Assembly (NCBI GenBank): GCA_964428845.1
Contig: CAYRZH010000001.1
Coordinates: forward strand, 138,990-202,989
Source of the DNA: an uncultured Candidatus Saccharibacteria bacterium
Lineage (GTDB): Bacteria > Patescibacteriota > Minisyncoccia > Phycocordibacterales > DATGWK01
Direction of reading: 5' to 3'
Length of the DNA: 64,000 nt
The notes beneath the pieces are model-generated. The model searched no databases. It saw only the letters and a list, made by a program, of their open reading frames with translations, and had not been told where the DNA came from. How positions within the stretch are numbered: position 1 is the first letter of the stretch; each line of letters starts with the position of its first letter. The translations under genes and the position numbers were made by a program. Shown piece after piece: positions 9,461 to 12,468 of this stretch.

Positions 9461-9638
9461 TTTGCTTTGTATATTATATGGCCTGAATGGTTAAAAAGCA
9501 TCACATAGATAGCATTGACAAAAAGTTTTCTTTATGCTAGTTTTGCAACGGAGTTTTGTAAATTGACAAAAAATACACGCTTGAAAGCGTGTGGGGAAAA
9601 AACTTTGGACCTTTGGTCCAAGAAAGGAAGTGAAAAAG

Positions 9639-9920
9639 ATGGCTGCGACAAGTAAGGGTGGCCAGGCCCTAAATCCTCTGGCAGATCTCGAGCGGGTGGA
9701 TCCCATCAGACCACCCTCCGTGAGCTATCCCAAAGACTTTACTCTTTGGGACCTCGATGTTCCGAAGGATGATCGTGTGAGGATCGTCAACGAGCAGGAT
9801 TTTCCTCTGAACGATCTTCTCTCGAGTTTGGGATTGTCGGATTCGCCCCTTCGGCCGAGTTTTGGCACAGCCAACTACGGCGAGCTTCTGGGTCGTTCTG
9901 GAGTAGTCGCCTTCTCTTGA
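9639..9920 (+). CDS. hypothetical 93-aa protein translationally coupled to the downstream MutS-like ATPase
   Basis: ATG preceded by aaaggaagtg. Its stop TGA overlaps the TTG start of the next ORF (TTGA). GC-rich like its neighbours. Confidence 0.35.
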   Translation: MAATSKGGQALNPLADLERVDPIRPPSVSYPKDFTLWDLDVPKDDRVRIVNEQDFPLNDLLSSLGLSDSPLRPSFGTANYGELLGRSGVVAFS

Positions 9921-11752
9921 GAAGCGAGCGGTTCCGCAAGTATGTGTTGGAATTATCTTTGCTTAGCGAAGAACTTCCGACCAACGAGGAACACTTCTTG
10001 CGGTTTTATGACCCGGAAAGGGAACACAATCCTTTCTGGGAGCAGGTCCATGCTTTCTGCAGCGAGGTCGACCTGGCCCAAAGCGAAGCTGGCCGAAAGT
10101 CTGATCGTCTCGATACTTTGGTATCCGCTCTCCGTGGTGGAATGAGTCTTGAAAAAATCGAAAGAAGAGTTGCCGATGTTGTGAGGGAAAGGGTTCAGCG
10201 TGTGGCCGTCATCGGTGGTATTCTTTCGTTTTCGATATCGGTCTGGCAGGAACAGGTCTGGCGGGAACAAGAGAAATCTCCGCTAAGGATCACAATAGGA
10301 CTCAAGAACCGTGAAGCCCACGGTCACTTGCGCTACTCCATGGCTCTAACCAGGCTCGGCAACCGTGACGATCTCCCTGAAGGTGGATTTTGGGGTACGA
10401 TTGCCCGGTACTCTGGCTACAACTTGATAGCAAATTGCTACAGAGGAATAAGATATGAACTTGCAAGACGCAAGGCAATGCGGGATGTGGTGCTTACAAC
10501 CTCTCCGCGGGAATTAGAGGCTGATGTGGTCAATTGGCTTGGTAGACACGTAGAGTCTCTCGGGAATTTTTCGGGAGATAGCAAGGGGCCGGCGGCTCCG
10601 CCTATCAACCTCAAGGATCTGAATGGGGGAGAGATCAAGGTCGCATTTCTGTATGACGAGAATGGACTCAAGGTGAAGGTCTACTCTATTAGCCCAGGAT
10701 CTATCAACGATCCAATCAATCCAGCATATTTTCTTCCATTTGATGACCATGCCTACAGTCCACCGCAGAGGAGGGCGATCGATCTTGCTCATGAAGTCTT
10801 GAATCAGGACTGGAAGGAGACTCTGCGAAGCTTGCTCTTGGGGCGCTTTCACGAGGCTCTCATTCGAGCCAGACCAGGGTTCTTTGATCAGGCACAACCA
10901 CCGTCACCGAAGACCGATAGGGTCTGCAAGTGGTATGCCATCAGAAACATGTACGGGACGGGGTCTTTGTGTGAGGCAGTGAAGACTTGCGAACAGTACC
11001 GCCAGTTCTTCAATTGCCACCTATCCCGCCTAAAGCAGGTCGCACGGATGGTGGATAAAATCTGCCTTCTTGCGAAATCCCACAATCTGCCAGTGTGTGT
11101 AGCCGAGCCTCTTCCCAACAACAACCACGTTGTCGAGTTCTCTGGCATTGTGCCTATCCATCTGCTGGACGCTTTCAAGGGAGATCGGACTGTGGCAGTT
11201 CCACTTTCACTCCCAACTCTCAATGGGCAGATGATCTGCCTCACGGGCAAGCATGGTGGAGGCAAAACGACGGCACTCATTTCAGTCTTGGCGGCTCTCT
11301 ACATGGCCCAAAGTGTCCTCCTGGCTTTTGGGGACCACTTCCGGTTCAATCCCAAGCGGGTTCTGGCATCGCTTCTCATAGAGCGAGGCAAGGGCTCAAC
11401 TGTGGAGTTGATCTTGAAAAAACTGAAGGAAATCCTGCTTGCTGCCAGACGAGTTTCTCCAAATGAAATGGTGGCCGTTATCGACGAACTAGGATCAGCG
11501 ACTCAAGAGGTTGCTGGTGACAAACTTGGGCGTCGAGTCATCGCCACCCTGGGAGGTAGGGGGGTAAGCATCATCTTCGCTACCCAGATCCAAGATCTCG
11601 CCCACTTCGCCAAAAGTCGTCTCAACGCCCACGCGTGTGCCATTGACCGAGATCATAGAGTTATGCCAGACACGATCAGTGATGGAGGTCTGGACGAGCT
11701 CTGTGATGGTCTTGGTGTAAGCCGGCTTCTCGAAGCCGCACCAAGCAACTAA
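9917..11752 (+). CDS. orphan MutS domain IV/V-like ABC ATPase with unrecognised ~350-aa N-terminal region
   Basis: HVVEFSGIVPIHLL...MICLTGKHGGGKTTALISVLAALYMAQ...MVAVIDELGSATQ...VSIIFATQIQDL parallels MutS RHPVVE...ITGPNMGGKST...DEIGRGTST...LFATHY. There is no mismatch-binding domain. The H-loop His is replaced by Gln. Confidence 0.6.
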   Translation: MRSERFRKYVLELSLLSEELPTNEEHFLRFYDPEREHNPFWEQVHAFCSEVDLAQSEAGRKSDRLDTLVSALRGGMSLEKIERRVADVVRERVQRVAVIGGILSFSISVWQEQVWREQEKSPLRITIGLKNREAHGHLRYSMALTRLGNRDDLPEGGFWGTIARYSGYNLIANCYRGIRYELARRKAMRDVVLTTSPRELEADVVNWLGRHVESLGNFSGDSKGPAAPPINLKDLNGGEIKVAFLYDENGLKVKVYSISPGSINDPINPAYFLPFDDHAYSPPQRRAIDLAHEVLNQDWKETLRSLLLGRFHEALIRARPGFFDQAQPPSPKTDRVCKWYAIRNMYGTGSLCEAVKTCEQYRQFFNCHLSRLKQVARMVDKICLLAKSHNLPVCVAEPLPNNNHVVEFSGIVPIHLLDAFKGDRTVAVPLSLPTLNGQMICLTGKHGGGKTTALISVLAALYMAQSVLLAFGDHFRFNPKRVLASLLIERGKGSTVELILKKLKEILLAARRVSPNEMVAVIDELGSATQEVAGDKLGRRVIATLGGRGVSIIFATQIQDLAHFAKSRLNAHACAIDRDHRVMPDTISDGGLDELCDGLGVSRLLEAAPSN

Positions 11753-11772
11753 GTTCTTTTGTTAGTTTTCGC

Positions 11773-11805
11773 TCCGGCGCATTTGCGTCGGAGTTTTCTT
11801 TTATA
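11773..11805 (+). terminator. rho-independent terminator after the MutS-like gene
   Basis: ctccggcgca-ttt-gcgtcggag hairpin followed by ttttctttt. Confidence 0.5.
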
Positions 11806-11828
11806 AAATAATGTCGGATTAGCACTTG

Positions 11829-11857
11829 ACTTTATACCCAAAAAGTGCTAGAATTAT
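11829..11857 (+). promoter_or_regulatory. sigma70-like promoter (TTGACT-17 bp-TAGAAT) for the lipoprotein gene
   Basis: -35 ttgact at 11829 and -10 tagaat at 11852, with exact 17-bp spacing, about 75 nt upstream of the ATG at 11934. Confidence 0.45.
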
Positions 11858-11933
11858 ACTAGATTTGAGGTGGCATGTGTCACCCCCAAAAGAACAAGCA
11901 CCCGCGCCAAAAGCGCTATAGAAAGGGAAAATC

Positions 11934-12332
11934 ATGAAGGGCAAGTTCCTGGGAATGGTGATGTTCACTCTCGTGGCGACTTTCCTTGCCGGCTGTGTCA
12001 CAGAGAACGGCAGGATGAGTGGGGGATATCGGTTTTTCTTCCCCCAGAACTCGGTGACGATCGTCAACAACACCAACGGGTGGATCGACGTCGAGCGGGG
12101 AAGTGAGCGGGTGGTGTCGAACCTCGGCCCTGGCCAGTCGTACACCATCAACCTGTACAACTTCTACGAAGGGGGTCCGCTTATTCTCGTGGCGTTGTGC
12201 CACACGGAGACCGGCGAGTACCTTGGGCTCGAGAGTCGGAGATTTCACCTGAACACGGGTTACCGCGGGCGGGAGCACGAAGAGTTTCTTTGGGAGGTAG
12301 ACAACATCCGAGCCCCAAGAGACCCACGCTAG
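11934..12332 (+). CDS. putative lipoprotein (signal peptide + LAGC lipobox)
   Basis: MKGKFLGMVMFTLVATFLAGC... GC-rich, with its own promoter and terminator. Confidence 0.5.
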   Translation: MKGKFLGMVMFTLVATFLAGCVTENGRMSGGYRFFFPQNSVTIVNNTNGWIDVERGSERVVSNLGPGQSYTINLYNFYEGGPLILVALCHTETGEYLGLESRRFHLNTGYRGREHEEFLWEVDNIRAPRDPR

Positions 12333-12346
12333 AGACCAAGACCTTA

Positions 12347-12378
12347 CGGGCGCACCAAACACGGTGCGCCTGTTCTTT
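12347..12378 (+). terminator. rho-independent terminator (gggcgcacc-aaaca-cggtgcgcc + T-run)
   Basis: Perfect 9-bp stem followed by tgttctttttt. Confidence 0.6.
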
Positions 12379-12468
12379 TTTGTAAAAAATCTGTTCGCGA
12401 GAGAAAACCCCAAGCGAGGTAATATTGTCTATTCGAAAACCTACCAAGCGCCGTGGTACAATCGTTTT

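Follow-up and report, generated by a model that had tools for sequence, protein, structure and literature searches.

The window analysed here, a 64,000-nucleotide stretch of contig CAYRZH010000001.1 from an uncultured Candidatus Saccharibacteria bacterium, carries on its forward strand a MutS-like gene followed by a small lipoprotein gene. A preliminary description made from the letters alone had presented this region as a three-gene module richer in guanine plus cytosine (GC) than its flanks, in which a 93-amino-acid (aa) open reading frame (ORF) was translationally coupled to a 611-aa MutS-type ATPase, with a separately promoted lipoprotein gene behind them. The 611-aa ORF is present at 9917–11752 and has a TTG start. 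As to identity and anatomy, we consider it very likely that 9639–11752 is one gene, encoding a 704-aa divergent member of the MutS superfamily whose reading frame is broken at position 9911. The family to which it belongs is an undescribed, very divergent MutS subfamily, sporadic in Patescibacteria (the candidate phyla radiation, CPR). Along the window, the gene is made up as follows.

9639 to 9911, forward strand: coding segment 1 (frame A, 91 codons), the conserved N-terminal region of the MutS-like protein.
9909 to 9920, forward strand: frame-change site, where frame A meets TGA at 9918–9920 and frame B goes on as LLLRSERF.
9911 to 11752, forward strand: coding segment 2 (frame B, 613 codons and a stop), within which the annotated 611-aa ORF begins at TTG 9917.
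11153 to 11167, forward strand: PIHLL, the equivalent of MutS RHP(V/L), preceding the ATPase core (HMMER alignment to MutS2 9kce_B).
11246 to 11272, forward strand: Walker A motif GKHGGGKTT, with Gly and Lys invariant in 117 sequences.
11393 to 11407, forward strand: GSTVE, the equivalent of the MutS STF..E signature (aligned to GRSTFMVE of Escherichia coli MutS), with Ser invariant.
11480 to 11509, forward strand: Walker B motif and D-loop IDELGSATQE, with the catalytic Asp-Glu kept and both residues invariant in 117 sequences.
11576 to 11590, forward strand: FATQI, with the H-loop Gln codon (11585–11587) in place of His (aligned to TTHL of MutS2 and FATHY of E. coli MutS).
11771 to 11794, forward strand: intrinsic-terminator-like hairpin with a T-run, closing the MutS-like transcription unit.

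The 93-aa ORF (9639–9917), taken in the preliminary description for a coupled partner, turned out to be the N-terminus of the same protein. It aligns with residues 1–92 of homologue P0002 (55% identity, E = 3e-34) and with residues 17–102 of homologue P0003 (52% identity, E = 3e-31), and the three relatives that a word-indexed search returned besides the window protein are all longer (691, 703, and 678 aa). Reading frame A through GCC (9909–9911) and then frame B from CTT (9911–9913) yields a joined protein of 704 aa that aligns across the junction free of gaps (GVVALLLRSERFRKY against EIVALLLKSSRFREY). At the codon level, a related locus (L001) reads GCC CTT CTA TTG where the window reads GCC TT CTC TTG, the C run being one base short. 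The N-terminal segment carries the motifs YP..LW, IINExDFP, and SFGxxDxxEIxxR, and of the 71 family columns with a conservation of at least 80% the window copy retains 63, among them 11 of 11 in the N-terminal fragment. Throughout the 64 loci collected for the family, the gene is nearly always a single uninterrupted ORF, broken only in the window, L024, and L039. The start of the 611-aa ORF at TTG 9917 is a chance result of the frame break, and the TTGA overlap is incidental rather than translational coupling, because it is a by-product of the frameshift. The upstream ORF that ends at TGA 9918–9920 can be read as 109 aa from GTG 9591 or as 93 aa from ATG 9639. The breaks in the two other interrupted copies lie at other sites (L024, 7818–10012; L039, 5091–7088; profile positions ~153/166 and 253/285).

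Since so many conserved columns have been kept, the lesion is either very recent or an error of assembly. A genuine frame change, leaving either a recent pseudogene or expression as polypeptides of 93 and 611 aa, stands at a little below even chances. The break is there in the deposited sequence, gene calling on the NCBI contig gave the two pieces as proteins of their own, a TTG with a weak GGAG lies at the junction, and two further loci are interrupted elsewhere, as expected of a dispensable accessory gene. However, other lesions are absent and most conserved residues are intact in both pieces, the lost base falls in a short C run, where an assembly length error of one base is plausible, and the piece that is cut off at the N-terminus holds motifs that rank among the best conserved in the family. 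Programmed −1 ribosomal frameshifting could also join the two frames, as the shift needed is indeed −1 and slippage on the final sense codon ahead of TGA would make the product as long as the homologues. It is nevertheless highly improbable: a slippery heptamer of the form X XXY YYZ is absent, which makes programmed frameshifting unlikely, re-pairing of tRNA-Ser from UCU to CUC would be poor, and nearly all other family members use one frame. For annotation, the case illustrates that a break of one base can mimic a small, translationally coupled partner gene.

The MutS-like ATPase with Walker A, Walker B, and FATHY-equivalent motifs that had been read from the sequence was confirmed by PDB, profile, and hhalign matches. 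A single-sequence phmmer search against PDB returned MutS2 chains (9kce_B, 1.9e-7; 7vuf_B, 1.8e-6), while a profile of 117 family sequences reached MutS2 at 6.6e-16 and MutS, MSH2, and MSH6 at ~1e-8. Comparison with E. coli MutS by hhalign gave a probability of 96% over residues 607–749, and Pfam MutS_V was matched, weakly, by 18 of 20 and 71 of 72 family members. Judged by these alignments, the C-terminal ~210 aa is a MutS domain-V ATPase of the ATP-binding cassette (ABC) type with Walker A, signature Ser, and Walker B Asp-Glu intact. The RHPVVE-like motif that had also been claimed did not survive alignment, its equivalent being PIHLL rather than HVVEF.

A Gln at the position of the H-loop His, likewise noted in the preliminary description, was upheld by alignment to the TTHL of MutS2 and the FATHY of E. 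coli MutS, and as read from the alignments the replacement is family-wide: conservation of the residue is at least 90% in the 117 sequences, and a separate set of 72 has it without exception. In the second nucleotide-binding domain of MRP1, Gln and Asn mutants of the H-loop keep wild-type-like transport, whereas other substitutions abolish it (PMC7756269). The Gln substitution therefore need not inactivate the enzyme; a Gln in the H-loop could still hydrogen-bond the gamma-phosphate and may thereby tune hydrolysis rather than abolish it.

For the region ahead of the ATPase, we modelled homologue P0002 with AlphaFold from the 117-sequence alignment, obtaining a mean predicted local distance difference test score (pLDDT) of 93.2 and a predicted template modelling score (pTM) of 0.85 (a run on 4 sequences gave a useless pLDDT of 47). 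The model begins with a small N-terminal helical region holding the conserved motifs, followed by helices, a long beta-hairpin (191–234), further helices, a second hairpin (325–345), two long helices (368–404 and 435–474), and then the ATPase. Carried over to the window, this puts the helical core/lever with its two beta-hairpin insertions in coding segment 2, together with the MutS-type ATPase at the C-terminus. In a Foldseek search of PDB the top 50 matches were all MSH2, MutS, or MutS2 (E-values between 1e-15 and 1e-12, most alignments covering ~650 columns), and the best viral fold matches were the giant-virus proteins MutS7 and MutS8. The template modelling (TM) score reported by Foldseek was 0.49 when normalised to the 484-aa core of Thermotoga maritima MutS2, and root-mean-square deviations (rmsd) of the whole-chain matches were ~20 Å.

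These whole-chain fold matches to MSH2, MutS, and MutS2 make the layout look MutS2-like (III-IV-V), lacking domains I and II. In this high-confidence model the N-terminal ~480 aa is predicted to form a helical core/lever with two beta-hairpin insertions, which is probably equivalent to the MutS core (III) and clamp-lever (IV); the equivalence is probable rather than proven because of the large rmsd and because the N-terminal 478 aa finds no sequence match in PDB. Pfam MutS_III was weakly matched by 7 of 92 members (1 of 20 and 6 of 72; best E = 4.9e-5). To the eye, SFGITDxxEIxxRxxLxxFL resembles PxxDxxxLxxRxxxIxxL at the start of domain III in E. coli MutS (residues 313–331), which we take as a lead only. 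Pfam searches returned zero matches to MutS_I and MutS_II in the window protein and family members, in keeping with the reported absence of mismatch-recognition and connector domains, and the N-terminal motifs are specific to the family. Two related statements of the preliminary description stood in part: that the clamp is missing and that the N-terminal 350 aa lack a recognisable motif are both true at the level of sequence, where PDB searches find no match, yet the structure model suggests a clamp-like region and a MutS-family fold. Smr and KOW domains likewise had zero Pfam matches in the window protein and in 92 family members, another nuclease domain is also absent, and in the model the protein ends ~30 residues past the last ATPase strand. 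A conventional MutS2 with an Smr domain, named at the outset as a possible alternative, is thus not what was found (no Smr; 25.6 bits against a cut-off of 400).

A HMMER search of 1.84 billion cluster representatives (clusters at 50% identity) gave 430 hits at E ≤ 1e-3, of which 212 passed E ≤ 1e-30; nearly all were single chains of ~620–730 aa spanning the whole profile. The ~210 clusters of the family derive nearly all from metagenome-assembled genomes of Patescibacteria. The word-indexed search, given a 20-sequence profile, returned only 2 proteins. Scanning GTDB species genomes with sequence patterns located 25 loci, and a scan of metagenomes 38 further loci, after a first metagenome scan with 4 close homologues as query had found nothing. 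As the patterns recall 61% of known family representatives, the number of GTDB species with a member lies only in the tens, which makes the family sporadic, and not universal, within CPR. Most of the 25 loci are labelled as Patescibacteria/CPR (Parcubacteria, Paceibacterota, Nomura-, Nealson-, Uhr-, Vogel-, and Saccharibacteria); the other 8 are labelled Gammaproteobacteria (4), archaeon (2), Micavibrio (1), and unclassified bacterium (1). Contigs labelled archaeon, Gammaproteobacteria, or Micavibrio include those of L015, L016, L018, L020, L028, L030, and L033, one of which is 389 kb long, and such labels point to mis-binning, mislabelling, or transfer. L042 holds a tandem pair (2967–5072 and 5236–6622), the sole duplication seen, its second copy being cut by the contig end. 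All named database copies are annotated "hypothetical protein", which agrees with the earlier remark that the combination is not a named system.

Upstream of the gene, the following leader elements were read from the window.

9564 to 9569, forward strand: candidate −35 box TTGACA, aligned with TTGAAA (L001) and TTGACA (L004) in the leaders of relatives; a convincing −10 was not found.
9575 to 9592, forward strand: leader hairpin 1, ACACGCTT-GA-AAGCGTGT, with a perfect 8-bp stem.
9605 to 9621, forward strand: leader hairpin 2, TTGGACC-TTT-GGTCCAA, with a perfect 7-bp stem, ending just 5' of the ribosome-binding site.
9622 to 9629, forward strand: Shine-Dalgarno-like AAAGGAAG, 9 nucleotides 5' of ATG 9639, as read from the sequence.

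Both hairpins are as perfect as the preliminary description had stated, and folding of the leader beats shuffled controls (z = −3.0). The two closest relatives, L001 and L004, show the same order of hairpin, spacer, second hairpin, and GGAAAGGA-type ribosome-binding site. Their first hairpin occupies the same place with a different stem sequence, the second has the counterparts GAACC-GAAAA-GGTTC (L001) and TGAGC-AAAGA-GCTCA (L004), each followed by GGAAA(A)GGA, a TTGACA/TTGAAA box upstream is common to all three, and the purine-rich boxes match the Shine-Dalgarno of the window. This comparison covered 9560–9640 of the window, 7915–8000 of L001, and 4085–4175 of L004, three sequences being too few for covariation statistics. 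A promoter scan did not call a full site at the TTGACA box, both hairpins look terminator-like when read on the minus strand, and Rfam gave nothing credible within 9400–12500. The palindromes do not recur elsewhere in the window, and there is therefore no regulon signal.

Downstream of the MutS-like gene lie the lipoprotein gene and its signals.

11826 to 11854, forward strand: promoter-like TTGACT-17-TAGAAT (with TG), 10 of 12 matches, for the lipoprotein gene.
11934 to 12332, forward strand: 132-aa lipoprotein ORFan with a LAGC lipobox.
12346 to 12373, forward strand: terminator-like hairpin 3' of the lipoprotein gene.

The separate promoter attributed to the lipoprotein gene is supported by this promoter-like site and by the terminator-like hairpins on both sides, between which the gene is an unrelated neighbour on its own transcription unit. 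It had zero homologues in 5.8 billion clusters and does not occur near any family member. The GC-rich character of the region was borne out: the excess is real (ATPase ORF, 52.1%; lipoprotein gene, 57.9%; gene mean, 45.4%). It is modest for the ATPase ORF, a mild outlier in the window (GC z = 1.8; GC at third codon positions [GC3] z = 1.2). Only the lipoprotein gene is extreme, being the strongest compositional outlier among the 50 ORFs of the window (GC3 77%, z = 4.2).

The suggestion that a small partner, a MutS-domain ATPase, and a lipoprotein form a horizontally acquired module for stress response or phage defence drew on this GC excess over the flanks, and could also appeal to the rarity of the family, its lack of synteny and GC3-outlier status in many genomes, and the strong GC3 deviation of the lipoprotein gene. 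We regard it as hardly credible, and as a three-gene unit it is refuted, since the partner ORF is the gene's own N-terminus, the lipoprotein has neither homologues nor any co-occurrence and stands between its own promoter-like site and terminators, and searches for a defence or phage context were negative. PADLOC returned nothing significant for the window protein (best mad8, E = 0.011, and DndD, 0.043, in the P-loop region only), and tblastn found zero relatives in 50,697 phage records and 72,556 plasmid records, with none in IMG/VR. The flanks are housekeeping genes: RuvC, a short YebC, RuvB, and a PilB-type ATPase upstream on the minus strand, and TsaE, PolA, and HolA downstream on the plus strand. 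Conserved co-occurrence of the three genes was not observed either, as clustering the ORFs of 29 and then 64 loci revealed no neighbour cluster common to more than 6 of 64.

No tRNA gene adjoins the region, the closest lying at 17110. Direct repeats surround the MutS-like gene (9542–9557 and 11782–11797, 14 of 16 identical), and a second pair (9399–9413 and 12368–12382, 14 of 15 identical) brackets the whole GC-rich two-gene stretch. Attachment sites were considered for these repeats and not accepted, about one such pair being expected by chance on our estimate. The upstream YebC/TACO1 gene (5911–6438) encodes only 175 aa, a length we take to be short for the YebC family, with an apparently complete C-terminus, and the protein looks like a shortened form. 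The idea that it is a second frameshifted gene, indicating an error-prone assembly, was rejected because of this complete-looking C-terminus.

Across 37 loci, GC3 of the family gene lies on average 9 points above that of the remaining ORFs at the locus and is the highest in 16. The excess reaches 25–28 points above all neighbouring ORFs, in islands that include L011 (0.51 against 0.29, standard deviation [sd] 0.02), L019 (0.64 against 0.36, sd 0.04), L012, L023, L029, L035, L036, and L056, and GC rises and falls exactly at the ORF ends. The outlier copies are mutually 26–64% identical, and a single recent transfer from one donor therefore cannot explain the pattern. The islands suggest frequent transfer or recombination: donors of ~50% GC may have passed the gene on repeatedly, or GC-biased gene conversion may have acted on a gene that recombines often. 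Nor do the relatives place the gene in a syntenic housekeeping setting of normal GC, as they show no synteny and a GC excess.

Such a pattern raises the prospect that the gene is a single-gene mobile accessory function, in defence or in the control of incoming DNA or recombination, spread horizontally among CPR, whose MutS-like clamp would detect nucleic acid that is foreign or aberrant. The family is sporadic (212 clusters, and 25 GTDB species by patterns of 61% recall), every copy is monocistronic, preceded by an intergenic gap of 128 bp or more, and synteny is lacking, GC steps coincide with the ORF ends, GC3 peaks in the family gene at 16 of 37 loci, and one locus holds a tandem duplicate. 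Yet the protein has no effector domain, defence or mobile-element genes do not recur next to it, and the family was not found on phages or plasmids. PADLOC matches among neighbours were of the GajB/UvrD and ABC-ATPase kinds, which look like UvrD-type and ABC-type housekeeping proteins though they were not checked one by one. With outlier copies as diverged as these, the transfers would also have to be many and from unseen donors. We therefore judge this accessory function unlikely. Equally unlikely, in our assessment, is its more specific form, a single-gene cassette wandering horizontally in Patescibacteria whose nuclease-less, ATP-gated clamp would survey incoming or aberrant DNA rather than serve classical repair; if true, the ORF-confined GC3 excess of the cassette would reflect frequent transfer or gene conversion.

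The neighbours of the family gene (101 flanking ORFs from 27 loci) are housekeeping genes. An AddA-like protein of ~950–1040 aa (UvrD helicase plus PD-(D/E)XK nuclease) occurs near the gene in three lineages, 226 bp upstream in L029, L048, and L060, 114 bp downstream in L056, and 4.7 kb upstream in L023 and L049. Further DNA-repair neighbours are UvrA (L017), RecR (two loci), and a PIF1-like helicase (L018), and in the window RuvB, RuvC, and PolA are near the gene. Together these make a weak DNA repair and recombination theme. Ribosome-associated GTPases also appear, with MMR_HSR1 in 6 of 101 flanking ORFs, BipA/TypA in L012, L019, L021, and L033, and Der/EngA in L014. An association with BipA/TypA was considered when it seemed to hold in 5 of 29 loci; one of these was Der, and the rate fell to 4 of 64, so it is a weak hint only.

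These GTPases bear on a further alternative, in which the protein would act like MutS2/RqcU in ribosome rescue, a dimeric clamp splitting stalled or collided ribosomes while the roles of Smr and KOW fall to other proteins. MutS2 chains are the best PDB sequence matches and gave the best target-normalised TM (0.49, on the 484-aa core), the GTPase neighbours would fit, and ribosome splitting by Bacillus subtilis MutS2 does not need mRNA cleavage (PMC10897456). However, BipA is near the gene in so few loci, and a sporadic distribution is odd for a translation quality-control factor, so that ribosome rescue seems quite improbable.

We favour instead a nucleic-acid clamp. As in other MutS proteins, the product would form a homodimer with two composite ATP sites that make a clamp open and close around nucleic acid as its substrate, and having no nuclease of its own it may serve as a sensor, clamp, or remodeller. 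Family membership and the weak genomic context suggest that the protein is probably a dimeric clamp, gated by ATP, that acts on DNA; the most likely substrate, which we put forward tentatively and at somewhat less than even odds, would be DNA repair or recombination intermediates.

Several observations weigh against our reading of the gene as a whole. The window protein scores below every curated cut-off (TIGR01069 mutS2, 25.6 bits against 400; KamC in NCBIfam, 26.9 bits against 300), Pfam MutS_V is not listed for it and only weak AAA matches are, the hhalign match to E. coli MutS spans the ATPase only, and the N-terminal 478-aa profile matches no PDB chain by sequence. No conserved partner points to a substrate, the enrichment among neighbours is weak, and translation GTPases make a theme of about the same strength as the DNA one. 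A gene that is rare, has no synteny, and shows a GC3 excess confined to its ORF looks more like a mobile accessory gene than like a core repair factor, and the frame change at 9911 may be a real mutation or an assembly error, either being possible from the deposited sequence.

Among known proteins, those of the MutS1/MSH type share the ATPase fold and motifs with the family, and MSH2 and MutS are its top whole-chain fold matches. Unlike them, the family has neither domain I (the region of the Phe-X-Glu mismatch motif) nor domain II, and a C-terminal helix-turn-helix dimerisation segment is not apparent, as judged from the sequence end and the model only. KamC, the lysine 5,6-aminomutase reactivase ATPase (NF052383), is the best NCBIfam match over the ATPase region (E = 2e-6), but its score is far under the cut-off and aminomutase genes are absent from all annotated neighbourhoods.

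MutS2 is the closest comparison. Both lack mismatch-binding domain I and connector domain II, MutS2 is the best sequence match for the family ATPase domain, and the predicted succession of a helical core/lever, a beta insertion, and the ATPase is similar to its III-IV-V layout (PMC12292046). In contrast to MutS2, the window protein ends right after the ATPase and lacks a C-terminal extension of the coiled-coil, KOW, or Smr kind, the family has an H-loop Gln where MutS2 has His and carries its own N-terminal motifs, and the region preceding the ATPase, at ~480 aa, is roughly 200 aa longer than in MutS2. MutS paralogues without mismatch-binding domains have unexpected roles, such as those of MutS2 in recombination control and ribosome rescue, and several prokaryotic MutS subfamilies are still uncharacterised (PMC12292046).

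MutS3, MutS4, and archaeal MutS5 likewise have a MutS ATPase on the C-terminal side and no domains I or II (Lin et al. 2007, PMC2190696). They are sporadic, suspected of horizontal transfer, and of unknown function; they were defined by significant similarity in the ATPase (MutSac) and occur in Firmicutes, Proteobacteria, Cyanobacteria, and archaea (PMC2190696). The family resembles them in its sporadic occurrence, its ATPase near the C-terminus, and its lack of domains I and II. It differs, as far as their descriptions set it apart, in lying largely below the Pfam MutS_V cut-off and in being restricted to metagenome-assembled genomes of the CPR type, and, unlike MutS4, it is a single gene rather than an overlapping pair of the MutS4A/B kind. 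The family thus adds a CPR-restricted lineage largely missed by curated models, distinguished by a fixed H-loop Gln, conserved N-terminal motifs of its own, and a compositional signature unusual for copies so diverged.

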